From: a virus
Taxonomy: Duplodnaviria > Heunggongvirae > Uroviricota > Caudoviricetes
Length of the DNA stretch: 56,004 nucleotides
IMG/VR virus record: IMGVR_UViG_2744054632_000003
Strand: one strand, 5' to 3'
Within the stretch, counting starts at the first letter, position 1. Every line of letters starts with the position of its first letter. This document shows, in pieces, positions 1 to 45,267 of the stretch. The position numbers and the translations under genes were made by a program. Below the pieces are notes generated by a model. It was not told the origin of the DNA and ran no database searches. It saw only the letters and a program-made list of their open reading frames with translations.

Positions 1-201
1 TCAACAATACCCGATATTTATTCCATGCCTCCAGCAACGATCTTTCTTCCTCCGTTGCGATTTCCCAGCATCCTGCAGTGGCGCAATATACTCACTGAAT
101 TCCTGGATGTAGAACTGTGTGGTGACGGTCTTCCAGCCATTCGGCTCCTGCTGTATCGAAGCATACCAGGCTATTTCAATATCGCTATGCTGCGGCAGCA
201 T
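1..201 (-). pseudogene. tail fibre assembly (Tfa)-like C-terminal fragment, frame-shifted at its 3' end; cut by window edge
   Basis: ORF contains SEYIAPLQDA, matching the conserved Tfa C-terminal region; an alternative frame of bases 1-60 reads ATEEERSLLEAWNKYRVLL, i.e. the Tfa C-terminus in a different frame. Confidence 0.45.
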
Positions 202-342
202 TTAACCCCTTGTAATTCATCGCCATAATTGATTTAATTCACAAATAAAACTATAACATGGTGAAATTAATGAAAAAAAAACACAGATGATGGGGCTAAA
301 ATTTACACACCACTTACCCTAAAGCTTTATGACTGGTGGGTT

Positions 343-927
343 TTGGGAGTATCAAATCGGCTTGCATGGGGATGTCCTACAAAGGAACACCTTCTTCCAC
401 ACTTTCTGGAACATTTAGGTAACAACCATCTGGATATTGGTGTTGGAACTGGGTTTTACCTTACTCACGTACCTGAGAGTAGTCTGATATCTTTAATGGA
501 TTTGAACGAAGCTAGCCTGAACGCGGCATCTACAAGGGCTGGGGAATCAAAAATTAAACATAAAATTAGCCATGATGTTTTTGAACCTTATCCCGCAGCG
601 TTACATGGTCAATTTGATTCCATTTCCATGTTTTACCTTCTTCACTGCCTGCCTGGAAATATATCTACAAAAAGCTGTGTAATACGCAATGCGGCGCAGG
701 CCTTAACTGACGATGGAACTCTATACGGAGCCACAATTCTTGGCGATGGAGTTGTGCACAATAGCTTCGGTCAAAAACTGATGCGCATTTACAATCAGAA
801 AGGCATCTTTTCAAACACAAAAGATTCCGAAGAAGGCTTAACACATATACTCTCAGAGCATTTCGAGAATGTTAAAACCAAGGTTCAAGGTACTGTAGTA
901 ATGTTTTCCGCTTCAGGGAAAAAATAG
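343..927 (+). CDS. class I SAM-dependent methyltransferase-like protein; TTG start, N-terminus uncertain
   Basis: Glycine-rich motif LDIGVGTGFY near N-terminus resembles MTase motif I; frame is open from 274 with no in-frame ATG. Confidence 0.4.
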   Translation: MGVSNRLAWGCPTKEHLLPHFLEHLGNNHLDIGVGTGFYLTHVPESSLISLMDLNEASLNAASTRAGESKIKHKISHDVFEPYPAALHGQFDSISMFYLLHCLPGNISTKSCVIRNAAQALTDDGTLYGATILGDGVVHNSFGQKLMRIYNQKGIFSNTKDSEEGLTHILSEHFENVKTKVQGTVVMFSASGKK

Positions 928-968
928 CATCCAACCGCAGCACGTTCTTGCTTAAGACGTGCTGCGGC

Positions 969-1092
969 ATAATCCCAATGATTACTCCCTGACAGGGTTC
1001 GTAGGCCACTCAATATCAGGTGCAGTTGATGTATCAACACGGTTCAGCAACACCCGATACTTCTTCCAGGCTTCCAGCAACGAGGTTTCTTC
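969..1092 (-). pseudogene. Tfa C-terminal remnant
   Basis: Minus-strand translation reads [39 protein letters not shown]-stop, matching the lambda Tfa C-terminus; only about 40 codons open. Confidence 0.55.
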
Positions 1093-1120
1093 CTCCGTTG
1101 CATATACAGCTCACCTTTTT

Positions 1121-1420
1121 TCACCCACGATTAACCAACAGCCAGACCAGCAGACACGCCACCACCGGCACAGCAAAATCCATCAGACTTGCTACATCCC
1201 ACGCGCGCGGATCAAAACCGCCCCACCACGGCATATTCATTCGCTTGCCATGCCCGAACATTTCAATCCAGCGATATTCTGCCTGGGTGTGTTCACGCGC
1301 AATGAAGAACGTACAACCGGCTATCGCCCCGTAAGCCCAGTTCCCGGTAAAAAGACCAATCAGTAGCTGCGCAGCCACAGCACAAAGCGCATGAAGGAAA
1401 GGTGTTATATCCATTTTCAT
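1121..1420 (-). CDS. small hydrophobic protein of unknown function
   Basis: ORF MKMDITPFLHALCAVAAQLLIG... with hydrophobic segments; first ATG is the fourth codon of the listed ORF. Confidence 0.4.
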   Translation of the reverse strand: MKMDITPFLHALCAVAAQLLIGLFTGNWAYGAIAGCTFFIAREHTQAEYRWIEMFGHGKRMNMPWWGGFDPRAWDVASLMDFAVPVVACLLVWLLVNRG

Positions 1421-1459
1421 CCTACCCAATAAAACGGGGCGCTCGACCCCTTAATATTA

Positions 1460-2495
1460 TTAAGACGCAAGCGCCGCCTCAATTGCAGATAATCTTTGTC
1501 TTAATTCTGCGTTTTCTTCTTCCAGTGCTGTTATCCTGTCGTCTGACTCTCTGGCTACCTGAACAAGCAAGCCAGTAACACCAGAATAATCTACTGTGTA
1601 ATAACGTTCACCTTCTTCACCTTCCGATCCGCTTGCACCGTCCTGATATTTCATTGCGGAACCTACAACTTCTGGGATTGCTTCCAGAGCTTCCTGTGCA
1701 ATGACACCAGCATAGGGGATACCGTTTTCTTTAAGCGTGTATGTATAGCCGTTCATTTTACGGATGCGGTCGGTTGCATTATCGATCACCTGAATGTTGT
1801 CTTTCAGATCCCGGTCGGAATGCTGGTTAAATGTGGTGGCATGACATGCACCATTAACGCTTAACATATAGGTGTTATCGGTATTTTTCTGCGCATAGAA
1901 CATATAAGCGCCACCATCAACACCGACTTCATAAACAACAGGACGGCTGGAGTTGCCCCACAATTGAGCAGTAACACCAGCATAAGCGGTTCCCTGTGTG
2001 TTTAATGTCATGGTTGACCCATGATTGGCATATTTGATCTGTAATGTGTCGGTGTAATCAAATTTAATAAGCGCGTTACTTCCACGCTTGCTGTATGACA
2101 TAAGGCAGTTACCCATTTTGAGGTATCCGCTGTCACCGGGAAAAATCATCGTACCGCCATAAAGGTTGGTAGAGTCCCAGCAAATGTTTGTCCCGTTATC
2201 GTTCAGGTTAAGGCGCGCCATTGCGTTACCTGGACTGTCTATCCATTTTTTGAGGTATAGTTCGCAATACGCATCCTCAACACCTGCCGTCCTGTGAGTT
2301 GAGCGGAGTTTTCTCCCAAATATAGCTCCGCTAGTTGGCAATACCTGCTGATACCATGAAGCAGACCAGTCACCAACGATTTCATCTTTGCTGTCTACAT
2401 ATAATTTTGTTGCGTAGCTCCTTGATCGTTTTTTAATTTGCTAACGTCGGATTTTAGCGTTTTGATGTCATCAGGAATTACTGTCGATGTAGCCA
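1460..2495 (-). pseudogene. tail fibre/spike distal protein with C-terminal intramolecular chaperone (peptidase S74-like) domain; apparent frameshift near 2395-2400
   Basis: C-terminus GYTYTLKENGIPYAGVIAQEALEAIPEVV...YYTVDYSGVTGLLVQVARE matches the endosialidase-type chaperone domain; a 33-codon ORF (MATSTVIPDDIKTLKSDVSKLKNDQGATQQNYM) from ATG at 2495 ends in TAG while the 293-aa frame is open just upstream of it; one missing base in an A/T run would join them. Confidence 0.55.
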
Positions 2496-2505
2496 TTTTT
2501 CTTCC

Positions 2506-2787
2506 TCACATCCAGCCACGAAGTTGATGCTCAACAGCAACCACGTATTCATCGAATAATGACGATATTTGCGAATCATTAATGATGCGCACGTTTACAA
2601 AATATCCGTCTTCCTTAACACATACCGGTTCGCCATCTTCAGTCAGTTCTCCGGTTTCTTTGTACGCGTTACCTATCACGTCAATAAGAATATCATCCTG
2701 CATCGACTCGTCATCATAATAGCCAATACTCTCCATAAAGGCCGAAAAGTCGGCCCTGTCGGCAAATTTGAGTGTTAAATCTTTCAT
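2506..2787 (-). CDS. hypothetical 93-aa protein coupled to stf (possible fibre chaperone)
   Basis: ATG overlaps stf stop (TAATG); acidic small protein; no recognised family. Confidence 0.35.
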   Translation of the reverse strand: MKDLTLKFADRADFSAFMESIGYYDDESMQDDILIDVIGNAYKETGELTEDGEPVCVKEDGYFVNVRIINDSQISSLFDEYVVAVEHQLRGWM

Positions 2788-18379: not shown

Positions 18380-18520
18380 CTCATGCTTCGGCTACATGAG
18401 TCAAATATGAAAGGATCTGAATGATTTTTAATGAAATAAATGGCTCTCTCTATCAAAATACAGCTAAAAAGCAATACACGTAGCAATACAGCGCTTCGCA
18501 AAGGTATGTCACTATATCTA

Positions 18521-19486
18521 CTAGTGCCAACCAGAATACGAATATCTTTGCTTTGCTTCTTCTGGGCTCATACCCACTAGTAAAGATACTAATTCAAAGT
18601 CAGGTTGTGGAATTGGAATCAATGCAGCCAAATATGCTGGCTTATTGAGAACAATTGTTGATAATCTAGCTTTATTCACCTTAGATAACTCAATATTACT
18701 TTCCGCTACCTTCGGGAATTCCATAATAAATGAATCAATTTCCCTTATGAGATAATCGATCAACGCCACTATACTTTCTGTCAAATCAATATATTTTGAC
18801 AACTCACTAGCATCAATTTCTTTCTTTATTTCATCCAATTTAATTTCAAACACTGGCTTGTCTTTACTGGCAATATTAGACAAACGTTTCTTTAAATCTG
18901 AATCAAGCTGATTCCTGACAATTAAACTTTTCAAAACAAAATTATAATTAAACAAAAAAGCATCAATTCGAGCAATATTCCTCCATGAGTTTCCAATTTC
19001 TTCATCTGACGGCATAATAAGTTCATGTTTTAGTATCTTGTACTTAATAAAAAAAACAAACCTCTCAAATAGAGTTTTATTAGCTGTGGGTATCTTTTTT
19101 ATAAATGAAAGACGGCTAATATCGAAATTCACCTCCCCGGCGTTAAATAAAAGTTCATTTATTGCCAGCGCTCTAAATATTGGATTTCTAGATCTCAAAC
19201 CAATATAACTACTTTTAATTGCCACAAGTGTATTTATCATCTGAAAAGAAACCATCATAAGCGTATTAGCAGAATTAAATTTCTCCGTTTCTATTTTAAT
19301 CTTCTCCTGCCTATTATTGATACAATAAGCAGTTAAGCCTCCCATAAGCGCCGATAAAAAAGATAATGCAATAGGGAATACATAATCTTTTGTATAATCA
19401 ACATCTGCTTTCAACATTAGTATTGCTTTAGCAATCAAAACTGCATCAGGGGTCATGTTAGAGCCGTCATTAAAAATTAAACACAA
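18521..19486 (-). CDS. AT-rich membrane-associated protein of unknown function (island cargo; candidate defence gene)
   Basis: Ile/Lys/Asn-rich 321-aa ORF with N-terminal hydrophobic segments; low GC versus flanks; sits at island end next to attL. Confidence 0.5.
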   Translation of the reverse strand: MCLIFNDGSNMTPDAVLIAKAILMLKADVDYTKDYVFPIALSFLSALMGGLTAYCINNRQEKIKIETEKFNSANTLMMVSFQMINTLVAIKSSYIGLRSRNPIFRALAINELLFNAGEVNFDISRLSFIKKIPTANKTLFERFVFFIKYKILKHELIMPSDEEIGNSWRNIARIDAFLFNYNFVLKSLIVRNQLDSDLKKRLSNIASKDKPVFEIKLDEIKKEIDASELSKYIDLTESIVALIDYLIREIDSFIMEFPKVAESNIELSKVNKARLSTIVLNKPAYLAALIPIPQPDFELVSLLVGMSPEEAKQRYSYSGWH

Positions 19487-20149
19487 TACCCATAAAATAT
19501 AACAGCTTATTGTTTAGAAAAGCAATATCATACACTCTATGATAAGCGTAATATCTTACAGGCATGGTGTGTTACGACACTTAATTAAACGTAATTTGCT
19601 AAAATTTTACACACAGAATCACACCAGGCTCTAACTCTCCTTTCATTACAATTGTAAGCATACAATTATCCTACCAGAACTTTATTGTTAAGCTCTCCCT
19701 TTTGAGCCCATCCCATAATGAATTGACGAAAGAACCGTATCTGTGGAGTAATCATTTCTGCGCGGTTCTATGTCGAAGACAAAATATGGTATGCGCATCT
19801 AGTCAGAGGGAAAGCAATTTTTCAGGGAAATATCATCTCTACATGGTTAAAACAACCAGAAGAAGTTATCAAGCAAGTTGGGTATGAAGATTTTCCTATA
19901 ATAGTAACGAAACGGGTTTCACCTGAGCGGTTGTGTTCGATCCGCCACAATACGCATAGGATGCCCTGTAATCCGTATTCTGCTTACTCAACAGCTTACC
20001 AGCAGGACTCGTAAGGCTGTTGCGATAGTGCAGAAGTAGGCCACGACCATAAAGTGAAGCCAGTGGCGCGTTATCGACTACTTTAGTGTAGAGCCTGATT
20101 TCAACGCAAGCGTGAGAGTTTTTTCTGGCGATAGGCCGTGACAAACAGC

Positions 20150-20330
20150 AACAAAATCAGAGAAAGGAAACGGCAGAGGCCAAAAAGCCCGTTTTCAGCG
20201 CCAGTCATTTCCTTTCTTTTCAGGGGGGATTTTAAATAAAAACATAAAGTTACGGCGAAGAAGAACGGAAACGCCTTAAACCGGAAAATTTCCATAAATA
20301 GAGAAAAACTGCGCGCCTGACGCCCCGTAA
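20150..20330. other. island cos site: cosB-like region and divergent cosN
   Basis: About 85 percent identical and colinear with prophage cos region 34950-35130; at the cosN position island has GCCTGACGCCCC where the prophage has AGGTCGCCGCCC. Confidence 0.65.
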
Positions 20331-20381
20331 CGTTCTGGATCGCCGGAAAGGACCCGCCAGCCAGAGCGGGCCCTAATTTCA

Positions 20382-20765
20382 TCAACCAATCAGCTTATAG
20401 CGACCATCCCGTGCATTGCGGCGTACACGCTCAATCTTGAGGCATAGCGCCGCATCTGGCTTTTTTGGGACAGGTACGCGGCAATATTCAGAAGCGCGAG
20501 GAATATTATTTATCCAGTCGATCACTTCACTTAAATACCAGGCCTTACGCCCTTCCGTAACCTGCACACGCTCCGGGAACTCTCCACTAGCCTCAAGGTT
20601 TAGCAGTGTACGACGACTCAGGGTTGTAATTTCCATCACCTGATTCATATCAACAAGGCGCTCGCTTAAACACATTTTGTCAGCGATAGCTTTTAATTCC
20701 TCTACAGCTGGATTCGGGTACATCATTTCGGCAATTGGCTTAAGGTCATTGTAATCATTCTGCAT
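20382..20765 (-). CDS. AlpA-like HTH protein adjacent to island cos (candidate packaging-redirection or regulatory protein)
   Basis: LSRRTLLNLEASGEFPERVQVTEGRKAWYLSEVIDWI resembles the AlpA/excisionase HTH fold; gene ends immediately at the island cos. Confidence 0.5.
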   Translation of the reverse strand: MQNDYNDLKPIAEMMYPNPAVEELKAIADKMCLSERLVDMNQVMEITTLSRRTLLNLEASGEFPERVQVTEGRKAWYLSEVIDWINNIPRASEYCRVPVPKKPDAALCLKIERVRRNARDGRYKLIG

Positions 20766-20776
20766 TGTATCCCCCT

Positions 20777-21118
20777 TTACACACGAGCCAGCGGCTGAAC
20801 AGAAATACCTGAGCCAACAAACGCTGCAACCTTTACTGACAGTTCTTTAACAGACTCAGGCCAGTTCAGAGCATCAACATTTAAGACACCTGTCTTATAG
20901 ACCTGAGCCTGTGTTTTTTTCGCGGTGTCGATTTGTACAGCGGAAACATAAACCGCTTTACCTACGCTCGAACCATCCCATACCACCAGTGCACCTGTTG
21001 CATCTTCCTGCATCAGTGGCGTAAATGCAGGAATTACCCCTTTATTAGCTGAAAATATCCCCAGCGTAGTCACCAGTGCTTCAGTGCCAGCCATGAGTTC
21101 AGTGTAATGAGTAGCCAT
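20777..21118 (-). CDS. head decoration protein D homologue (island-encoded)
   Basis: TPLMQEDATGALVVWDGSSVGKAVYVSAVQ...VYKTGVLNVDALNWPES aligns with lambda [32 protein letters not shown]...[17 protein letters not shown]. Confidence 0.7.
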   Translation of the reverse strand: MATHYTELMAGTEALVTTLGIFSANKGVIPAFTPLMQEDATGALVVWDGSSVGKAVYVSAVQIDTAKKTQAQVYKTGVLNVDALNWPESVKELSVKVAAFVGSGISVQPLARV

Positions 21119-21127
21119 TGCTCCCCC

Positions 21128-22168
21128 TTAGCCAATGCGAACGGTAACAAAACGATTGATGCGGGCCGGTATTGGCTGTGGTGCTGAATGTGTCTGCACA
21201 TATTCAATAGCCGGATCACCAGGCACAATATAGTTTTTCGGTGCAAGTTCGGCTTTAGTCAGCCCCATTCGGATTAGCTCCGGATCCTGAATACCGCCAT
21301 AGGCGACAATCCCCTGAAGAGCCGTATTGCCAAGCACCATCAAATCAGGATCAAGGAAATGTTTTTCAGTTCCGTCCTCGTCGGTATAACGCCCGCTGTA
21401 AACAACAATCGCAACATCGCCCATATATCCTTTAAAACTCACCGAATCACCAAGGTCTTTAAGGGCCGTTTCCAGTTCGGAATTAGAACCACGACGGGTA
21501 TCCAGAGCCTCTTTTATCGCTCTGAATGAACGGTATTTCTTCCATACATTACCGCCCATAATGATGATATTAGTGACGCCCTCACTAAATTCTGCGTAGC
21601 TCTCAATATCATCATTTGGATCAAAAGTTTCTTTATCCTTACCTGACCACTCAGTACCGCCAGACTGAGTGATGATATTTTGTGGTTTAATATTCCAGTC
21701 CAGCTCATAACGTTCAATACCATCGCCCTCAATGATATTTTTCCCCGTTGTGATTGCCTGAACGGCAAGCCATTCAATACGTGCACGAATAGCTTTAGCT
21801 TGATTTACAATCGCCTGTTTAACTTTAATATTACGCGCCCCAAAAGCATTGTATTGCTCAGGTGATACACCAGCAGGGCGCACAGCTAACTTATTTGGAT
21901 CAATGCTGCTTTTCGGCTTCATATAGCCTGGACGAATTGTTTTTGATTCGTACCCTTCGTCACGTGAAACTTTACTACCCACCATAGGAGAACAAAACGC
22001 TGCAATTGGGATATTTGGATCGTCGATTGTATCAAGAATAATATCGCGCGATCCAAACATTACCGAGCGAGTAAAAAACAAACTGGTAAACAACGCATTT
22101 AGTTGTTTTTGTACATCTACAGCATTAACCACCTGTACAAGCTGGGTAGGCGAATATAAATCAACCAT
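21128..22168 (-). CDS. major capsid protein E homologue (island-encoded, divergent)
   Basis: ITQSGGTEWSGKDKETFDPNDDIESYAEF...RSFRAIKEALDTRRGSNSELETALKDLG...VAIVVYSG colinear with lambda E; start taken at MVDLYSPTQLVQ with AAGAGG 6 nt upstream. Confidence 0.8.
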   Translation of the reverse strand: MVDLYSPTQLVQVVNAVDVQKQLNALFTSLFFTRSVMFGSRDIILDTIDDPNIPIAAFCSPMVGSKVSRDEGYESKTIRPGYMKPKSSIDPNKLAVRPAGVSPEQYNAFGARNIKVKQAIVNQAKAIRARIEWLAVQAITTGKNIIEGDGIERYELDWNIKPQNIITQSGGTEWSGKDKETFDPNDDIESYAEFSEGVTNIIIMGGNVWKKYRSFRAIKEALDTRRGSNSELETALKDLGDSVSFKGYMGDVAIVVYSGRYTDEDGTEKHFLDPDLMVLGNTALQGIVAYGGIQDPELIRMGLTKAELAPKNYIVPGDPAIEYVQTHSAPQPIPARINRFVTVRIG

Positions 22169-22385
22169 ACGCATCCTCTTTGCATTCATTAAAAATAATT
22201 GTGGATATATGCTATCACCGATATTTGTCATGCGAACACATGCAACCGAGTGCAATGTTGTATAAAGTTTTGGGGTGACAACTTCAGTGCGAACAATTAG
22301 TGTTAATATATTCACTCCCTTTGGTCGGGATTTATGTAGCATGCCGGAAAATTTATTTTTTCCGGCCTTTTTTTATTGGCAATAT

Positions 22386-22835
22386 TTAAAATGGGATATC
22401 ATCTCCCCATTGCTCATTATCTCCCACTGGTGGCTGGCTTCCTTGCTGATCTGCCTGTTGTTTTGCTCTGTTCAGTGCGTCAGTAGCCTGCCCCTGTTGG
22501 CCTTTTTTGCCGCCCGGTCGCACCGATCGCGCACTGATTACGCTGTCTGCGATAACCTGCCAGCCCTGCCGCGTTTCGCCGTTCTGTCCAGTCCACTGGC
22601 TCATCTGCATGTTACCCGCCACGCTCAGGAGTTCGCATTTGTGATGCTTTGCCAGCGCGTCGGCTTGTCTGCCAAACGCCAGGACAGATAACCACATCGT
22701 CGCCTGACCGTCATCCGACTGACTGCAAGGCAGTGATACCGCCATACGCGCCAGCGTCATGGGGGTGCCCTTGCTGGTCTGTTTTGTCTGCGGGTCGTCC
22801 ACCAACCGCCCGTAAACTGATATTTGCGCCGTCAT
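22386..22835 (-). CDS. single-stranded DNA-binding protein-like
   Basis: OB-fold-like N-terminus and Gly/Gln-rich tail ending in acidic DDIPF, the SSB C-terminal signature. Confidence 0.65.
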   Translation of the reverse strand: MTAQISVYGRLVDDPQTKQTSKGTPMTLARMAVSLPCSQSDDGQATMWLSVLAFGRQADALAKHHKCELLSVAGNMQMSQWTGQNGETRQGWQVIADSVISARSVRPGGKKGQQGQATDALNRAKQQADQQGSQPPVGDNEQWGDDIPF

Positions 22836-23077
22836 GCTGCCTGCTCTCCGGACTTAATATTGATTGTTGTCACTTCCTCCGCTTCAGCAATCTCCCGTTC
22901 GGTCAGAGTGGCAAAGTTTGCAGCCGCCGTTGTCATGAATGCGCTAATCAGTTCGGGATGTGCTTTCGCGTATCCTTCCCCGGCGTTGCGGTCGATGATT
23001 TTTATCGACACCCTTAACCAGTGTTCAGTCAAATCAAGGGCGTGCGATTGTGATTTTTTTGTGTGCTTCGCTGTCAT
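22832..23077 (-). CDS. hypothetical protein (81 aa)
   Basis: ORF overlapping start of SSB-like gene by 4 nt; no recognised family. Confidence 0.35.
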   Translation of the reverse strand: MTAKHTKKSQSHALDLTEHWLRVSIKIIDRNAGEGYAKAHPELISAFMTTAAANFATLTEREIAEAEEVTTINIKSGEQAA

Positions 23078-23128
23078 AGGCTTTATCTCACAGCAGTAAA
23101 TTAAAATTTTTGCGTTTTAACCCTTCAC

Positions 23129-23351
23129 CTGTTCACCTTTTGATATTTTCTCTTTTAATTCATAATGTTAATGGGTGAACAGTTTCACAAAAACTATTCA
23201 CCAACTGTTCACCACTGTTCACCCTTGAAGCTCAATAAACAATCAAAAAGGTGAACAGTGAATAGTTTGGTGAACAGTTCATAAATAACTGTTCACCCTA
23301 TAATACACTGATATAAAAGATATTTATGACAGGGTGAACAGTGGTGAACAG
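23129..23351. repeat. iteron cluster, probable island replication origin
   Basis: At least 10 copies of GGTGAACAG or its complement CTGTTCACC in both orientations in an AT-rich stretch just downstream of the primase-helicase gene. Confidence 0.7.
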
Positions 23352-23364
23352 TTATTCCATAAGT

Positions 23365-25185
23365 TTAATTTTTGCTATCGTCATTAGTGACCGATACACA
23401 TGATGGCATCCAGTCCTCTGATTCCTCCGTCAGTGTCACGTTTGAACGCAAACCGTGCTTCGTTTTCCGTTTCATATACTCCCTGCCATATTCCGCCATT
23501 GCCCCCGGCATATCTTTACCGAAGCGCGTCAGTGTTACAGGTTTACCAAACCCATGTGCCCTCATATAAGCCAGATAGGCATGATAGAGATACCTGCGTG
23601 GGCTGAATGGCACAATTTCAGCATTACCCACTAATAGGCCATCACACATTACCGATGCCATGAGATAGCCGCAGAAGTCCACCAGCGAATCCCCCTCTCG
23701 CTTTATCGCCAGTGCTTCTTCAGATTTCTGCTGCTCATATAACAGGCGTCTGGCTTCGTCCTGATCAGCAAACCGTGTAAGCAGATGACGAATCACTACC
23801 GCCAGCTCACCTTCTATTTTTTCCGCCAGCATCGAATCGCGTTCGTTCTCCGGTACAACTTCCGAAAAATTGAATATCACCCGACGACGTGAGATCCCCC
23901 CGCTGCGGTCACTGAATGACATGGCGTTATTGTTAACCGCCAGTACTACTGCCGGAATACGCGTTGAATAGGGGGCTTTGTGTTTCGGGTCAATTGCCAC
24001 CTTGTCACCGCCTGTAATGGCCTTAATCCCTGCCCCATCACCAGCGTAGCGGGTCATATCCGGCATGATAATCAGCGAAAAGCCAACCACTAACGCACGT
24101 TCCCTTGCATCTTCCAGCGCCTTCATGCTTGCTGATACTGTATTAGCCTTACCCGCCAGCATGGTGCAAATCTCCGCCATCACACTTTTACCACTTCCCC
24201 CCGGCCCTGTTACCTCAATGAATAACTGCCAGTCGTACCGGTTCGCCAGCACCATGAATAATGCCGCCAGTACGCGATCTGCCTTGCGGTCATTCTCAGC
24301 CACCGAACGGCGCAACCACTTCCAGAAATTCGGCGCATGTGTTGCCAGCGTTTCCCCCTCTGCTGGTGGGCTGAAAGGTAATTCACTGGCAATTAACAAC
24401 CAGTCGTTTTTGTTATGCTCCCGAAAATTACCAGTTCTGGTATCAAATACCCCGTTACTGAATCCAATCAGGTTACGGGCAGTATTCCCCATTACAGGCA
24501 AACTTAACTTCATGGTATCTACCGCCGATTTAATGGCGTTCTGCGAATAGCTGATCTCCGCATCAATGAAAATCTGCGCCATAGCACGCTGTAACTCTTT
24601 ATCCTGAACCGGCTCCCATACAACGCCGTTGTAATGATGAACGGTGTCAGAGTCGGCATTGATTGCCAGTTCGCCGCCGTAATGTGCAAGGAGAACTTCA
24701 CCGCGCTGGCTGGCCCCCATCTGATTCAACGCCAAAGATGAAGCACGCTCGTCATTTTTGCGCTCTGCCTTCTTCACTGGCAGTTCAATCACCAGACTTT
24801 CCCCATGCTCCGCTTCAGCTTTTAGGCCGACAAGGCGCGGAGTCCAGTCTTCAGGCTCTCGATCAACAAAGCTACGGTAACAACGTGCTTCCTTTACGCC
24901 TGCAATAGCAAGTAATGTCGCAACCTTCGTCAGACTTTTCTCTGCAATCTTTCCGGCACGATAAACACGCACATAATGACGGCCTTCATCGATAATTTGC
25001 ATATCATCCAGGTTTTCCAGTTGTTCCGTACCCAGAATGACTGGTGGTGTATCATCTGCTGCAATATGCTTACCTGCCCATTCATTCCATTCTTTTGCAT
25101 GGCTCCAGGCATCACTGCCAGCAAAAATGATGACTTCCGTCATTTTGTCGCGCGGTTGGTATTTTAAGTTCGGAGCACGTTTCAT
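23365..25185 (-). CDS. primase-helicase (P4 alpha / D5-like SF3 helicase family)
   Basis: Walker A GPGGSGKS, followed by conserved SF3 helicase-like region; GGAGGT 5 nt upstream of ATG at 25185. Confidence 0.8.
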   Translation of the reverse strand: MKRAPNLKYQPRDKMTEVIIFAGSDAWSHAKEWNEWAGKHIAADDTPPVILGTEQLENLDDMQIIDEGRHYVRVYRAGKIAEKSLTKVATLLAIAGVKEARCYRSFVDREPEDWTPRLVGLKAEAEHGESLVIELPVKKAERKNDERASSLALNQMGASQRGEVLLAHYGGELAINADSDTVHHYNGVVWEPVQDKELQRAMAQIFIDAEISYSQNAIKSAVDTMKLSLPVMGNTARNLIGFSNGVFDTRTGNFREHNKNDWLLIASELPFSPPAEGETLATHAPNFWKWLRRSVAENDRKADRVLAALFMVLANRYDWQLFIEVTGPGGSGKSVMAEICTMLAGKANTVSASMKALEDARERALVVGFSLIIMPDMTRYAGDGAGIKAITGGDKVAIDPKHKAPYSTRIPAVVLAVNNNAMSFSDRSGGISRRRVIFNFSEVVPENERDSMLAEKIEGELAVVIRHLLTRFADQDEARRLLYEQQKSEEALAIKREGDSLVDFCGYLMASVMCDGLLVGNAEIVPFSPRRYLYHAYLAYMRAHGFGKPVTLTRFGKDMPGAMAEYGREYMKRKTKHGLRSNVTLTEESEDWMPSCVSVTNDDSKN

Positions 25186-25469
25186 TTGTTACCTCCGGCA
25201 ACTAACATTGCCCGAATTTTACGGATATAGCCTGCGGCACGCCTCTGATTATCTGTCTTGCAATTTTTTACCAGAATGAAATCTCTTTCGAACTGCTGAC
25301 GCGGCATAACACATTCAAAATCATAACCATCACGCAAATAAGAGACACGACGATCATCAACCGAAATAATCTTTACCCGATAGCCATAGCTGTCTTTGAA
25401 AATATCCCCAAGGCTGATTTTTGAATGAGTTTGACCGCTGGCAATAAAGCCAGAAAATTTATTTTTCAT
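25182..25469 (-). CDS. hypothetical protein (95 aa)
   Basis: ORF translationally coupled to primase gene; no recognised family. Confidence 0.4.
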   Translation of the reverse strand: MKNKFSGFIASGQTHSKISLGDIFKDSYGYRVKIISVDDRRVSYLRDGYDFECVMPRQQFERDFILVKNCKTDNQRRAAGYIRKIRAMLVAGGNK

Positions 25470-25472
25470 TTT

Positions 25473-25697
25473 TTATTCTCCGGTATAGCTCTGGTCGTGT
25501 ATTTTTATAGCTTCATCCAGCTCTTTGATGACAGGATCAAGTAACGTAATTAACGCTCCAGCTAAATTAGCATCCCGTTCATCGTGTTCCGCATTTGTTG
25601 TCCCATCAAGCCAGGTTGATAAGATTTCTCGCATATTTTTGCCACAAACGAGCGCGTTTTCAGCATGTGTCAGCACTTTAAAATAAAGATCATTCAT
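25473..25697 (-). CDS. hypothetical protein (74 aa)
   Basis: ORF in same operon; no recognised family. Confidence 0.35.
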   Translation of the reverse strand: MNDLYFKVLTHAENALVCGKNMREILSTWLDGTTNAEHDERDANLAGALITLLDPVIKELDEAIKIHDQSYTGE

Positions 25698-26055
25698 GGC
25701 ACACCTCCTGACGAATACGGGCGGCGAATATCATCACGCAGCCAGTTGGGGATTGCTGGCGGGCTTCCTGTTCGCTGGTGGCCTCGATGGTAATCACGCG
25801 CGGTTGTGCCGTACTCAGGGCGATAAAACGCCAGATGAAATTGTTTTCACATTTCTGAATAAACAGCGTGTTTTCTTCCCGCCCTTTCCAGAAAGCCGCA
25901 GTATAGCCCATCTCCTTAACCATCTTGCGCGCATCAACCAGCGTGTCAGCGGCTACATGTACCGTAGTTGCTCCATCTGCTATGCGATCGCGATGTAGCG
26001 CCAGAAAGATGTATATAAATTTAGGGTGAGTTTGGGTATGCTGTGTTCCAGCCAT
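25690..26055 (-). CDS. hypothetical protein (121 aa)
   Basis: First gene of leftward island operon; no recognised family. Confidence 0.35.
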   Translation of the reverse strand: MAGTQHTQTHPKFIYIFLALHRDRIADGATTVHVAADTLVDARKMVKEMGYTAAFWKGREENTLFIQKCENNFIWRFIALSTAQPRVITIEATSEQEARQQSPTGCVMIFAARIRQEVCHE

Positions 26056-26085
26056 AGTCGTTACTCCAGTTAACGGTTTGTGGTT

Positions 26086-26190
26086 AGACGCCTAGGTGTG
26101 TTGCGAGCACCCTAGGGCGTTGTTTATAGGTATAACATCATGTTAATGTGTGTACCTATTCAACACTGATGCTAAGCAATAGGTACACAC
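26086..26190. promoter_or_regulatory. divergent promoter/operator region with two palindromes
   Basis: Perfect 15-bp inverted repeat ATGTGTGTACCTATT / AATAGGTACACACAT and imperfect palindrome CGCCTAGG...CCTAGGGCG between divergent operons. Confidence 0.5.
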
Positions 26191-26385
26191 ATGTCAACTA
26201 CAATTCAAAGAGATAAGCAGCCAAAAGGAGCCGGCAAAGCCCCTGCGTTTCAGATCCGAATCAATCCTGAACTCAAAGAACAGATGGCTGAATCAGCAGC
26301 TCAGGAAGGAATGAGCTTGGCCAATTGGATTAAAGAATTAGTTCGTGCTGAGCTTCGCCGTAAAGGTATAGAACCTAAAGGCTAA
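26191..26385 (+). CDS. ribbon-helix-helix (Arc/CopG-like) DNA-binding protein
   Basis: 64 aa; FQIRINPELKEQMAESAAQEGMSLANWIKELVRAEL fits the RHH beta-alpha-alpha pattern. Confidence 0.55.
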   Translation: MSTTIQRDKQPKGAGKAPAFQIRINPELKEQMAESAAQEGMSLANWIKELVRAELRRKGIEPKG

Positions 26386-26417
26386 TTTTTTTAATTTTTA
26401 TTGAATAGGATATTCAA

Positions 26418-27101
26418 ATGACTCCAACTCCTGACGATGCTGTATTCACTGCATCAAACATTATAAATTTCTTCGTGGCACTCGGGACTTGCACAGCAGT
26501 GTTAGTTGCATTAATTGCTAAAAAGCAATCATCTTTTGAATCAACATTTTCTCTCATGTTATCTCAACATAACAATGCTCTAAATGATCTTAGAAAAAAA
26601 TCAAATTACTCAGAGTTAATTAATAAAATGATGAATGGATTGGTTTCTTTAAAAGACACTAATACACTGATGCACAATCATGATGCTGTTTTTGGAAGCT
26701 ACTTCAGAATATTATATCATCTATTGAAGTTCATTGATGAAAATGCTGGATACCATCCCTTTGATCTAGATCGTAAAAAAACCTATACAAGCCTTGTCCG
26801 TGCACATCTAGATAATGAAATAACGTATTTACTTGCAATAAACTGTGCACATGCTAACAGTGAAAATCAATATCATTTTTATAAAACATTGATTGAGCGC
26901 TATGCCATGTTAGAACATTTAATCTTGGATAAATCAACGCTATTGGACTATACCCCTCCAGATTTAAATGAATATCAAAAAGATTTGCGCGTAGCAACAA
27001 TAGTGGTTACCGATGATATAAAAACTATTTTTAACGAGATTGCAACAGTATATTATAAGAGCGCATTTGGAAAAAACCCTGATTTAAAAAATTTCCTGTA
27101 A
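26418..27101 (+). CDS. AT-rich membrane-anchored protein of unknown function (island cargo; candidate defence gene)
   Basis: N-terminal TM helix IINFFVALGTCTAVLVALIA; AT-rich codons; co-oriented with RHH gene. Confidence 0.45.
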   Translation: MTPTPDDAVFTASNIINFFVALGTCTAVLVALIAKKQSSFESTFSLMLSQHNNALNDLRKKSNYSELINKMMNGLVSLKDTNTLMHNHDAVFGSYFRILYHLLKFIDENAGYHPFDLDRKKTYTSLVRAHLDNEITYLLAINCAHANSENQYHFYKTLIERYAMLEHLILDKSTLLDYTPPDLNEYQKDLRVATIVVTDDIKTIFNEIATVYYKSAFGKNPDLKNFL

Positions 27102-27127
27102 GATATAGGGAGGAATACCTCCCTAAC

Positions 27128-27358
27128 TTACCATTCACCTCTTATCCAAGCTTGAATCTCAGAGAGTCTATAAGCCACCGCCGTAGATCCGATTTTGATT
27201 CGCTTGGGGAATTTCCCCTCCTTTTCAAGCTTCCAGCGTGTGCTGTTCGCAAGAGTGGTTAGCTCCCGACATTCTTTCTCACGGATCATTCGGTCAATGT
27301 TAGGAATGTACTCCAGACCCTTTTTATCAACAATTGCCATTTTTTTCATGTTAACCAA
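27128..27358 (-). CDS. alpA: AlpA family transcriptional regulator / excisionase-like
   Basis: Small HTH protein immediately downstream of integrase; LEYIPNIDRMIREKECRELTTLANSTRWKLEKEGKFP. Confidence 0.7.
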   Translation of the reverse strand: MVNMKKMAIVDKKGLEYIPNIDRMIREKECRELTTLANSTRWKLEKEGKFPKRIKIGSTAVAYRLSEIQAWIRGEW

Positions 27359-28586
27359 CCTTTTGTTTGAGGATTGTCACTTTTGAATCAGCACCTGCGA
27401 TGCTATTGAGATATGTAGTCCAGAGTTCCAGAGCATCCAGTTTTTTAGCCATAAACTTACTCCGGTTGTAAACACCTGCCACGCCAGGTAGCGCATGGCC
27501 TAACAGTTGTTCTACTACATAAAATTCAACACCGAGATCACTTAGATGAGTAGATAGCGTTCTTCTAAGGTCGTGTAGTGACCATTGTTTTTCATGGCCC
27601 AAACGTTTACCGATTTTCCCCCCAATCTTGCTTACGCTTTCTCTAATTCGCAGACTTCCCAGCACATAACCAGTATGTTTTGTCTCTTCGTGAACATCCG
27701 TTACCCACTGTCGTAGAATTTCAGGTACTGGTCTGACGATTTCAACACCAGTTTTTGAGTGATCTTTTGGTACAGTCCAAACCCAACTTTCGAGATCCCA
27801 TTCGCTCCATTCTGATAATCGGGCTTCACTCATTCGACATCCAAATACTGTACAAAGCACAAACATTTTTCGCGTGTATTCAGACATTAGTTTTAAATCA
27901 GGCTCGACAAAAATTGCCTTCCAGAGCTGGCCGAGTTCGGCTTCATCCAGAACCCGATCCCGCTTACCTGCAATCTGCCCCACATCACTCATGCGCAAAT
28001 CCTTTAAAGCATCACACGTCGCGTACTGGCGTACCCGACAAAAACGAAGAGCTAATTTAGTGTCAGAAAAAACATACGCCGCCATAACTGGTGCATTACG
28101 TTTAATTCGGTCAAAACAGTCCAGCCATTCATATAGGTGAGTGTCATTTACGGGCAAATGACCGATATAGGGAAAGATATGCTTTCGAAATCTGCCAAGC
28201 GTTACAGCATGAGTTTTACGACGCACCTTACAGTAATTTTCATACCAGTAATTTAGTGCATCCTCCACTGTGACCGGCTTTAAGCGTTCTTCAGCCTGAA
28301 TCTTAATCTGGATACGCGGATCACGTTTGTCAGCCAACCAACCACGGCACTCGTCGCGCTTTTCCCTTGCCTGTTTGAGTGACATATCAGGATATTTACC
28401 CAACGTTAGCCAGACCGGAGCAGCCCGGCCACCTGCTAACCTGTAGAAGAAAACAAAGCTCACAGCCCCTTTAGTACTCACACGAATAGAAAGCCCCTTT
28501 CCATCAGCAATGGTGATCTGCTTTTCTCTGGGTTTCCCCAGATATCCTTTAAGCGCTTTGTCGCTCAGTTTGTTCTCGCCAGCCAT
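27351..28586 (-). CDS. int: tyrosine integrase (P4-type)
   Basis: Conserved HDLRRT and LLGH motifs of tyrosine recombinases; start taken at MAGENKL; adjacent to attR. Confidence 0.85.
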   Translation of the reverse strand: MAGENKLSDKALKGYLGKPREKQITIADGKGLSIRVSTKGAVSFVFFYRLAGGRAAPVWLTLGKYPDMSLKQAREKRDECRGWLADKRDPRIQIKIQAEERLKPVTVEDALNYWYENYCKVRRKTHAVTLGRFRKHIFPYIGHLPVNDTHLYEWLDCFDRIKRNAPVMAAYVFSDTKLALRFCRVRQYATCDALKDLRMSDVGQIAGKRDRVLDEAELGQLWKAIFVEPDLKLMSEYTRKMFVLCTVFGCRMSEARLSEWSEWDLESWVWTVPKDHSKTGVEIVRPVPEILRQWVTDVHEETKHTGYVLGSLRIRESVSKIGGKIGKRLGHEKQWSLHDLRRTLSTHLSDLGVEFYVVEQLLGHALPGVAGVYNRSKFMAKKLDALELWTTYLNSIAGADSKVTILKQKVG

Positions 28587-28748
28587 TTTTAGCCCCAAAA
28601 AGCAATACAAGCTGCAATACAGAGATGATTGCAACACACAGATAACGAGGAAAATTCAGTGAAAGCGCCAGATAAACTTATTCTTTATTATCAAAAGATT
28701 AAGTGTAAAAACCAGCAACTACACGAAAGCCTCAGAAAGCCATGCTAA

Positions 28749-28994
28749 GTGCTTCGGCTTGACATATCCCGGCGTAAATTCAGAGGTGGAGCCGCCACGG
28801 GAGCGGATAACCTCACCGGAAACAATCGGCGAAACGTACAGCGCCATGTTTACCAGCCCCGGAATTTGTGAGAGATAGACTTTCTCCGTGGTGAAGGGAT
28901 AGCTCTCACGGAAAAAGAGACGCAGAAACAGCGGATCAAACTTAAATTTCTGCTCATTTGCCGCCAGCAGCTGGGCGGTTGTGTACATCGACAT
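28749..28994 (-). pseudogene. E: major capsid protein E, N-terminal 82 codons, interrupted by island insertion
   Basis: MSMYTTAQLLAANEQKFKFDPLFLRLFFRESYPFTTEKVYLSQIPGLVNMALYVSPIVSGEVIRSRGGSTSEFTPGYVKPKH then reads LAWLSEAFV-stop into island DNA. Confidence 0.9.
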
Positions 28995-43740: not shown

Positions 43741-45267
43741 TCAAAAATAAACCTCACCATCAACCATATATTTGAGAGTACTTATCGCCTGCTGGGCGGA
43801 TATTGTTTTCATTAAAGGATAGTGTTTAAAAACAATGCCATTCATAAAATAGATATCACAGGTTTTATTATCTGTATTGATTATGATTTTTTCGAATGTT
43901 TTATAGGCAAGTGTACGACATAGCTCTCGCCCATTTTTACTGGTTAAGTCAATAGCATGAAAATCACCAAGTGAGCTCACCGCTTTACTCTTCAAAGTTT
44001 TTAATGATACAGAAGCCCTTCGTAATTCCTTATCTAATACTCTGATTTTTTCTGCTATAGCGGTAACTTCAGGCGCAACAGATAATGCAGCAATTAAATT
44101 ATTAATTTTCATCTGGAGCTCAATAATTTTCAACTCTAAAGTTTCATTAGCATCTTTCTTGTTTTCAACTGGTTGGATTTTACTACAATTAAAAAGCAAC
44201 TCATTAATGATATTATAATCAACCAAATCTCTCTTTATTGATGGCCTGTCACATCGATGCAGTCTTCTCATCGGACAAACATAATAGCCATGCAAACTTC
44301 CAGATACCGCATGAACAATCATGGTATTACCACAAGCCTCGCACTTCATAACTGTTCGAAGTAGATTTATCAACATAGGATTTTTGCTACTATTGCTAAT
44401 ACCAAAAGGTGCCAACCGAATTTCCTGCACAGCGTAAAACAAATCATCTGATATGACTCTGGGATAATAGCCAGCGATTTCACTTATTCCTTTACCTCTT
44501 GCACGATATGAAGGTACGCATATACCTATCAGAGCTTTATTCGCTAATAATTTTTCAATTACAGAAGGTCCCCATGCACTTTCTTTTCCTGAGAAATTCT
44601 TTACAGCATGATCATTTAAATACTTGGCTATTGCATTCAATGAGCGCCTTTCCATCCTGAGTTTAAAAATTAGCTCAATAGTTTTCACCCTGTCGGGGTC
44701 TGGAACAAAAGCCGTTCTTTTGTCATCTAAGGAGAGCCATCTCGGACAAGACGCCGTCATAATCGTGCCTGACTCCAGTGCATCCTGCCGTTTTTTCTTC
44801 CATGATAATTTAACCCGACTTGACTTTATCTCGCTTTCTTCATTTGCCCTTTGTGCTATAAGTATGGCTTTTATTAATGAATATGGATCATTCAAAGAGT
44901 CAATATTATAGACTGTATTATCGCAAAGAGTTATAACATCAATACCGTGATTCAAAATCAATTTCAGACGCTCAATCGCTTCACCGACTTTTTCTCTTGA
45001 AAGTCTGTCCAGACTTTCAACTAACAATGTAGTTCCTGGCAATATATAACCATGCTCTATAGCATCTAAAAATTCCGAAAAAGCTCCTGATTGTGCATGC
45101 TTTCCTTTGAATGCACTTAATCCTAAATCTTCATATGTTATGGTATCAAGATAATAATCACTATTTACCTTTAACCATTCAGCAATAAGTCTTCTCTGTC
45201 GGTTTAATGAGTCGCCAGACATCTGACCTGGTGATGAAAATCGCATATATGCTATGGCTTTTTTCAT
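43741..45267 (-). CDS. ybcK: large serine recombinase (YbcK-like)
   Basis: N-terminal resolvase motif AIAYMRFSSPGQ...GDSLNRQ with catalytic Ser context, plus recombinase domain and Cys-rich zinc ribbon; 508 aa as in DLP12 YbcK. Confidence 0.8.
   Translation of the reverse strand: MKKAIAYMRFSSPGQMSGDSLNRQRRLIAEWLKVNSDYYLDTITYEDLGLSAFKGKHAQSGAFSEFLDAIEHGYILPGTTLLVESLDRLSREKVGEAIERLKLILNHGIDVITLCDNTVYNIDSLNDPYSLIKAILIAQRANEESEIKSSRVKLSWKKKRQDALESGTIMTASCPRWLSLDDKRTAFVPDPDRVKTIELIFKLRMERRSLNAIAKYLNDHAVKNFSGKESAWGPSVIEKLLANKALIGICVPSYRARGKGISEIAGYYPRVISDDLFYAVQEIRLAPFGISNSSKNPMLINLLRTVMKCEACGNTMIVHAVSGSLHGYYVCPMRRLHRCDRPSIKRDLVDYNIINELLFNCSKIQPVENKKDANETLELKIIELQMKINNLIAALSVAPEVTAIAEKIRVLDKELRRASVSLKTLKSKAVSSLGDFHAIDLTSKNGRELCRTLAYKTFEKIIINTDNKTCDIYFMNGIVFKHYPLMKTISAQQAISTLKYMVDGEVYF

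Follow-up and report, generated by a model that had tools for sequence, protein, structure and literature searches.

A widespread DLP12-type cassette of tfa remnants and a methyltransferase gene beside a tail-fibre module

The tfa–ybcY–tfaX arrangement at the start of the DNA analysed here is already known: it is an ordinary DLP12-type cassette, widespread in Escherichia coli and found in sequenced phages. The DNA is a stretch of 56,004 nucleotides of a caudoviricete (IMG/VR record IMGVR_UViG_2744054632_000003), referred to below in its entirety as the window. The account that we favor has several parts, and our strong confidence in it applies to them jointly. The window is a lambdoid prophage whose integration site is that of DLP12, argU, and at positions 1-1430 its late (tail) operon reaches its distal end. 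The cargo of the cassette is a moron, encoding a small-molecule or lipid methyltransferase, that originated as a chromosomal enterobacterial segment. Positions 982-1101 are the scar of a tail-fibre module replacement, in which a phage-21-type fibre module displaced tfa. The tfa fragments are non-functional scars, and the cassette was built by the joints described below.

A preliminary description of this DNA had called the region a graveyard of Tfa 3' ends. The distribution of the region argues instead for a fixed and widespread cassette. It is found in the DLP12 prophage of K-12 and in sequenced lambdoid phages, and at least 80% of window 1-1100 is present in 3,791 of 5,426 complete E. coli genomes (~70%). 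The methyltransferase gene is present in 3,822 of the same 5,426 genomes, and fifteen phage records carry it at 99% identity or more.

The prophage and its chromosomal site

The closest genome is NZ_AP021933, and many E. coli chromosomes match window 1-1460 at 99.9% identity. The gene order in NZ_AP021933 begins with nfrA, ybcH, envY, ompT, an alpha/beta hydrolase gene and a tfa pseudogene. It continues with a class I SAM-methyltransferase gene on the opposite strand, a second tfa pseudogene, a gene for a 97-aa hypothetical protein and a tail-fibre gene, and then with a 93-aa gene, a gene for an stf N-terminal protein, lom and J. At its other end, the prophage has intD beside a tRNA-Arg gene. 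It is these neighbors, ompT, envY and nfrA on one side and intD with tRNA-Arg on the other, that identify the window as a lambdoid prophage occupying argU, as DLP12 does. The capsid gene of the prophage is disrupted by a 10.4-kb island. Within the cassette the order is tfa 3' end, hairpin, convergent ybcY and tfaX. The features are collected in Table 1.

Table 1. Features of the cassette and the adjoining fibre genes, in window coordinates.
Feature	Coordinates	Strand	Basis
Tfa-derived part of the tfaX remnant; Tfa codons ~137-174	1..108	-	tblastn; alignment to K-12 tfaX, PhiR26_1 tfa and ev243
5' part of the chimeric tfaX ORF, non-Tfa	109..201	-	Citrobacter freundii loci; phrog_3893 match
Divergent spacer between tfaX and ybcY with predicted promoter	202..269		SELEX site reported for K-12; sequence reading; consensus scan
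Class I SAM-dependent methyltransferase gene of the ybcY type (phrog_2132), frameshifted here; intact length 218 aa	270..927	+	Pfam; PHROG; alignments
Strong hairpin between convergent ybcY and tfa remnant	935..967		Folding on both strands; alignment with lambda, PhiR26_1 and K-12
tfa 3' remnant, codons 156-194 and stop, without its own start codon	982..1101	-	Pfam Caudo_TAP; identity to PhiR26_1 Tfa
~20-nt spacer at the joint of membrane-protein gene and tfa remnant, common to phages 21 and ev243	1102..1120	-	Alignments
97-aa membrane protein, three helices, last gene of the phage-21-type tail-fibre module (phrog_1443)	1121..1414	-	PHROG; homologue search; structure model
Tail-fibre protein with C-terminal Peptidase_S74 intramolecular chaperone domain	1460..2497	-	Pfam; alignment

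The first Tfa remnant and the tfaX frame

The preliminary description had reported two Tfa C-terminal remnants in direct orientation and no complete tfa gene. Both statements hold. The two remnants align to intact tfa when PhiR26_1 Tfa is used as a tblastn query, and they form a direct repeat of 75 nt with 88% identity at a spacing of 1,042 nt, 58 nt of the first copy lying in the window. A full tfa gene of ~190 aa with its fibre-specific N-terminal part is found nowhere in the 56-kb window, where PhiR26_1 Tfa matches only the two remnants.

Two tfa copies in one region might also be taken for the relic of a tail-fibre segment that was once invertible, like those under Gin of Mu, Cin of P1 or Pin of e14, and whose invertase has been lost, and prophages e14, Rac and Qin do have duplicated tfa/stf ends beside pin genes. 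We give this reading almost no credence. The tfa copies are direct, there are no inverted repeats in the region, and the sequenced phages show the same direct arrangement. The nearby invertase that the preliminary description had proposed to look for is lacking: there is no small serine invertase in the window or within 8 kb to its left, the sole serine recombinase being a 508-aa YbcK-type protein 42 kb away. Nor was a gix-like site found at up to three mismatches.

The first remnant had been described as a frame-shifted Tfa end covering 1-201. It is Tfa-derived and frame-shifted over 1-108, but 109-201 is not Tfa. Of the intact PhiR26_1 Tfa, aa 137-150 match 108-67 and aa 154-174 match 64-2 in a differing frame; the frame breaks between them because, relative to K-12, ev243 and PhiR26_1, 7 bp have been lost between positions 65 and 66. 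The remnant runs ~21 bp past the left edge of the window. The intact 101-aa tfaX of ev243 matches Pfam Caudo_TAP (PF02413) with an E value of 9e-18, over profile positions 75-121.

For the remainder of the frame, two observations point to a second parent. TfaX aa 3-37 match the PHROG profile phrog_3893, and loci in Citrobacter freundii encode a full divergent ORF of 79 aa, MPRRSDIEIAWYASIQQEPNG..., which starts in a stretch matching window 115-201. On that evidence TfaX is a chimera: the 79-aa ORF supplied its first ~30 codons, and what follows is Tfa from codon ~137. In the alignment the joint falls at about 100-115, in a short stretch that is alike in both parents (CAGGAA…AGTGAG). TfaX is thus no separate gene family. 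The 101-aa ORF is nevertheless intact in several sequenced phages and may have a function. RefSeq also annotates a fragment of 'DinI' on the plus strand at 103-183. Neither the genuine DinI of the Citrobacter locus, used as a tblastn query, nor Pfam finds anything there, and we reject it as an annotation artefact. The locus can thus serve as a worked example in annotation: 'TfaX' is explained as a chimeric ORF, and the 'DinI' and 45-aa 'hypothetical' calls are probably spurious.

The second Tfa remnant and the fibre-module joint

The second remnant, previously placed at 969-1092, is a genuine tfa 3' end with a true span of 982-1101. By tblastn its protein (window 1101-985) matches aa 156-194 of the PhiR26_1 Tfa at 100% identity, and its segment 982-1080 on the minus strand matches Caudo_TAP (PF02413) at profile positions 103-130 of 131 (E 5.3e-14). 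The homology to PhiR26_1 and K-12 stops at 1101. PhiR26_1 is 99.4% identical to the left flank and to the window up to that position, and then runs on into a complete tfa of 194 aa with an stf of 1,025 aa ahead of it. Beyond 1101, ev243 has, like the window, a ~20-nt spacer and then the 97-aa membrane-protein gene. Phage 21, in which the order is stf – orf92 – membrane protein – sitABCD, shares the membrane-protein gene (96% aa identity), the ~20-nt spacer and the start of the tfa remnant with the window. Its tfa remnant, however, is cut after 57 nt (window 1045), and its convergent cargo is the sitABCD transporter, not ybcY. The comparison of PhiR26_1, ev243 and phage 21 shows that one old joint, between the membrane-protein gene and tfa codon 156, has passed to several phages. 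The arrangement is thus ancient as well as widespread.

At least three cuts have fallen in the 3' region of tfa, one of them at codon 156 and the others close to codons 137 and 174. The alignments therefore support this region as a recurrent recombination zone. The preliminary description had invoked Tfa 3' ends as recombination hot spots. That idea is sound to the extent that a recurrent mosaic joint is present (PhiR26_1, phage 21), but the left joint of the cargo is at about codon 137 and not at the 3' tip.

The two remnants are in direct orientation and overlap in Tfa coordinates (137-182/194 versus 156-194), as they would if a single insertion of the cargo into one tfa had duplicated its target and the copies had since diverged. 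We consider this quite improbable. The two copies are 88% identical over their 75 nt, whereas the surrounding cassette is 97-99% conserved among K-12, the phages and the window, and the C-terminus of K-12 tfaX, …DIEWLIQP, differs as that of another tfa allele would. The low identity and the differing C-terminal ends point to copies drawn from different alleles and not to one duplication. Transposition, moreover, does not typically duplicate more than 100 bp, and there is no mobile-element gene in the cargo.

The membrane protein and the tail fibre

Next to the scar is the small hydrophobic ORF that had been noted at 1121-1420. The ORF exists, although it occupies 1121-1414 on the minus strand and encodes 97 aa. 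The protein belongs to phrog_1443 and falls in no Pfam family; 575 homologues were found. Its predicted structure has three helices (pLDDT 91.8), and its central loop is highly conserved: REHTQAEYRWI...MPWWGGFD (AREHTQAEYRWI…NMPWWGGFD). The gene is located directly past the fibre genes in phage 21 and many lambda-like phages. It follows a gpJ-like gene in a Comamonas prophage and is a lone chromosomal gene in Aeromonas.

The S74 fibre is 345 aa long in relatives, and a 1-nt deletion at 2418 splits the window copy. Peptidase_S74 intramolecular chaperone domains generally fold their own fibre. By analogy, this fibre probably needs no Tfa, and a self-folding S74 domain would explain how the module can be without tfa.

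The methyltransferase gene and its reading frame

The preliminary description had also reported a plus-strand ORF at 343-927 with a glycine motif like that of SAM-methyltransferases. The motif, DIGVGTG, is present as motif I at 433-453, but 343-927 is only the out-of-frame remainder of a frameshifted ybcY-type gene. The start assigned by RefSeq in relatives is ATG 258, for 222 aa; nearly all homologues, like the PHROG profile, start from the second ATG, 270, for 218 aa. Right after ATG 270 the window has a run of nine A residues (A9, 273-281) where relatives have eight (A8). This interrupts the methyltransferase reading frame, which meets a stop at 288-290.

Three alleles of the A-run are seen: A8, the A9 of the window and a 2-nt loss in K-12. 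To compare the lengths of the run, 5,426 complete genomes were searched with the A8 and A9 forms of the sequence (queries of 96 and 97 nt). An exact A9 match was found in none of 3,827 records and an exact A8 match in 1,314, and all the sampled rows other than K-12 have the A8 length. Phase variation at the run was rejected on the exact-match counts.

The window and its nearest relative, compared over 45.6 kb, are separated by 4 SNPs and 4 single-base indels. All four indels are changes in short homopolymers, and each of them breaks a gene: ybcY, the S74 fibre (2418), the tape measure (13521) and the portal/terminase region (31539). Since the indels are all in homopolymers and A9 appears in no other genome, sequencing errors are favored, and the A9 frameshift in ybcY is probably one of them. 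The frameshifts could also be real pseudogenising mutations in a dead prophage. The island in the capsid gene had already broken this prophage, which would relax selection, and the ybcY of K-12 is likewise a pseudogene. We regard real mutation as possible but doubtful, because four frame-breaking homopolymer indels beside only four SNPs make a typical miscall pattern and because A9 is absent from the other genomes searched.

Enzyme class and selection

The domain search on 343-927 that the preliminary description had recommended returns four Pfam methyltransferase families above their cut-offs: Methyltransf_12 (38 bits, cut-off 30), Methyltransf_23, Methyltransf_25 and Methyltransf_11. The motif DxGxGTG and about 60 other columns are invariant among 31 homologues with identities down to 56%. 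An AlphaFold (AF2) model of the protein has a pLDDT of 90.7 and a pTM of 0.87, and it yields 1,356 PDB structure matches at E<=0.001. The best 50 of these 1,356 are all methyltransferases with the Rossmann-like alpha/beta methyltransferase fold, and there is no DNA methyltransferase among the 50. The best neighbors are phosphatidylethanolamine N-, phosphoethanolamine and juvenile-hormone-acid methyltransferases and natural-product C-, N- and O-methyltransferases, as matches of a generic kind (TM 0.55-0.68, identity 13-21%). Sub-threshold NCBIfam hits and PDB sequence searches give only weak, generic likeness to small-molecule methyltransferases. No DNA-methyltransferase domain or target-recognition region is matched in Pfam or NCBIfam.

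The dN/dS ratio is 0.11-0.19 against the homologues in Citrobacter, Salmonella and Enterobacter, which indicates that the methyltransferase family is under purifying selection. From the model and its neighbors, the protein is most likely a lysogen-expressed methyltransferase with a small molecule or a lipid head group, and not DNA, as its predicted substrate.

Orphan DNA methyltransferases are frequent in phages, and the three alleles of the A-run would suit a phage DNA methyltransferase, serving in anti-restriction or as an epigenetic regulator, that perhaps undergoes phase variation by means of the poly-A run following its start codon. We find this highly improbable. Besides the lack of any DNA-methyltransferase match in Pfam, the top matches in both sequence and fold are small-molecule methyltransferases, and the orthologues are lone chromosomal genes without a restriction partner. 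The A-run counts given above, with no exact A9 against 1,314 exact A8 and the sampled rows other than K-12 all of A8 length, also weigh against it.

For the small-molecule or lipid methyltransferase, a narrower role can be imagined. YbcY may be a lysogenic-conversion enzyme, maintained by purifying selection in ~70% of E. coli, that alters a host metabolite or an envelope component with an effect on fitness, and the 97-aa membrane protein may have a specific role of its own, for example in exclusion or related to the fibre. We think this unlikely. Separately, a role in defence was considered and rejected: PADLOC returned no meaningful hit for the membrane protein, orf93 or the methyltransferase, whose match was to mad2 (E 0.003, 14 bits).

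Limits and origin of the cargo

The cargo comprises the methyltransferase gene and the 5' end of the divergent 79-aa ORF, at about 115-939, and its right limit is the hairpin. The extent of DNA homology to the window shrinks with distance: it covers ~115-939 only in Citrobacter, 229-922 in Salmonella and 208-897 in Enterobacter. The Citrobacter copy is 90% identical and is located amid prophage-type genes, including DinI, without any tfa. The homologues in Salmonella and Enterobacter (56-65% identity) are single genes in non-phage chromosomal neighborhoods. These lone chromosomal genes, together with a G+C content of about 40.6% in the cargo versus 48.8% in the window, bear out the earlier suggestion that the tfa ends had captured unrelated cargo.

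The divergent spacer between tfaX and ybcY contains TTGATT (229-234) and TATAAC (252-257) separated by 17 nt, a second promoter-like site at 202-229 and an SD-like GGTGA at 261-265. In the corresponding spacer of K-12, genomic SELEX with RpoD holoenzyme reported a site, TTGATT-17-TATAAC, along with an H-NS mark (PMC3946193). The promoter is a literature prediction within the SELEX-defined binding region (PMC3946193), and our consensus scan did not return the TTGATT/TATAAC pair. The hairpin at the other end of the cargo folds with a dG of -23.9 and -27.9 kcal/mol on the two strands, with z about -5.2 on both.

Proposed history

The joints can be read from the alignments, and the order of the recombination events is inferred and irrecoverable from present sequences. 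In a first step, a chromosomal segment with the methyltransferase gene and the start of the 79-aa ORF would have been joined to the middle of a tfa gene, at ~codon 137, by illegitimate recombination through a short microhomology. The chimeric tfaX ORF would be the product. This unit would then have been placed beside the tfa of another phage, just past its terminator hairpin, in the slot of the b-region that holds ea47 in lambda, and so would have become a moron with its own predicted promoter. Lastly, in the lineage of the window, a phage-21-type module of stf N-terminal protein, orf93, S74 fibre and 97-aa membrane protein would have replaced the stf–tfa module. The downstream crossover would have been within tfa, leaving its last 39 codons.

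Significance and comparison with known phages

As a discovery the cassette carries little weight, having been annotated in K-12 for decades and being present in most E. coli. Its value is as a worked example of how the 3' end of tfa serves lambdoid phages as a place to exchange cargo and fibre modules. It also draws attention to ybcY as a very common and selected prophage methyltransferase without a characterised function in the literature, where ybcY and tfaX appear in gene lists and one promoter survey, with no functional assignment.

In the DLP12 prophage of K-12, tfaD (b0561), ybcY (b0562, a pseudogene) and tfaX (b0563) are the same cassette in the same orientation and at the same chromosomal site, by ompT, envY and nfrA. 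From the tfaD 3' end through ybcY and tfaX, the K-12 sequence is 97.7% identical to window 9-1101. In MG1655 the cassette is followed by appY and ompT, with appY replacing the alpha/beta hydrolase gene found to the left of the window cassette. A near-complete tfaD (187 aa) is kept in K-12, because the head and tail genes upstream of it were deleted there, while the window has only the tfa 3' remnant. The two copies also differ in their lesions. The K-12 ybcY lacks 2 nt at the A-run, and its tfaX has TGA in place of a W codon, where the window copy has instead the 7-bp deletion.

The phages PhiR26_1, ev243 (Nesevirus) and 2G7b have the order J–lom–fibre module–(tfa)–ybcY–tfaX–hydrolase–ompT, as in the window; their identity to the window, left flank included, is 98.8-99.4%. 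Unlike the window, they have ybcY (A8) and the 101-aa tfaX ORF intact. PhiR26_1 has a complete stf–tfa pair, and ev243 has no S74 fibre gene.

Other genes are found in the ybcY slot in phage 21 (sitABCD) and in lambda (ea47). In lambda, where the order is tfa – hairpin – ea47, the tfa 3' end and the hairpin directly past its stop codon are homologous to those of the window; the convergent cargo in the same slot is ea47/ea31/ea59, and there is no second tfa fragment. The morons of lambdoid phages, in the concept of Juhala and Hendrix, are extra genes between conserved genes, with a deviant G+C content, a promoter region of their own and a terminator-like hairpin. With its low G+C, the SELEX site in its spacer and the hairpin that it shares with lambda, the cargo appears to have the features of a moron. 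It differs from a typical one in that one of its flanks also bears part of a second gene, truncated and joined to a piece of tfa.

A probable island in the major capsid gene

The prophage of the closest E. coli genome, NZ_AP021933, lacks a 10.36-kb segment at window positions 18394-28749 and is elsewhere 99.98% identical. The insertion point lies within the prophage major capsid gene, and the joints show a 10-bp overlap. The segment encodes a capsid protein of its own, together with the integrase, primase/helicase and other features tabulated below, and it resembles a phage satellite, or a PICI-like island that forms capsids, residing within the prophage capsid gene. A gene for a large serine recombinase is part of the prophage early region; in the relative, emrE is its neighbour. 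This gene has no connection with the tail-fibre end.

Features of the window and its left flank
Feature	Position	Strand	Context
Partial "DinI family protein"	103-183	+	RefSeq annotation in nearest genome
45-aa hypothetical protein	872-1009	-	RefSeq annotation in nearest genome
93-aa ORF, phrog_1361 (no assigned function)	2506-2787	-	Between stf-N-terminal gene and S74 fibre gene
Phage_cap_E capsid protein, segment's own	21128-22342		10.36-kb segment
Iteron-like GGTGAACAGT repeats	23150-23360		10.36-kb segment
D5-type primase/helicase	23365-25185		10.36-kb segment
AbiC-like protein	26418-27101		10.36-kb segment
Tyrosine integrase	27351-28637		10.36-kb segment
Large serine recombinase, 508 aa, YbcK-type	43741-45267	-	Resolvase, Recombinase, zinc-ribbon domains
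TAP-like alpha/beta hydrolase/ompT	Locus L001 6235-7719		Left of window

Indels and annotation artefacts

Against only four SNPs across the same 45.6 kb, the window differs from its nearest relative by four single-base homopolymer indels (273, 2418, 13521 and 31539). Every one of them disrupts a reading frame: the first in the methyltransferase gene ybcY, the second in the S74 tail fibre, the third in the tape measure and the fourth in the portal/terminase region. These indels are probably sequencing errors. Two RefSeq annotations around ybcY look like artefacts. The supposed DinI fragment gave no match with a genuine DinI query and none in Pfam, and the 45-aa frame runs across the hairpin, on the strand opposite the end of ybcY.

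The fibre module and the genes beyond tfaX

The 93-aa ORF may be an accessory protein of the fibre module. The same ORF is found in phages 21 and ev243, flanked there by stf and the membrane protein. In the sequenced lambdoid phages ev243 and PhiR26_1, ompT and the gene for a 494-aa TAP-like alpha/beta hydrolase are located between the chimeric tfaX and the attachment site/integrase. The hydrolase matches the PADLOC candidate model C3a206 (E 7e-56), and where these phages encode it, K-12 has appY instead.
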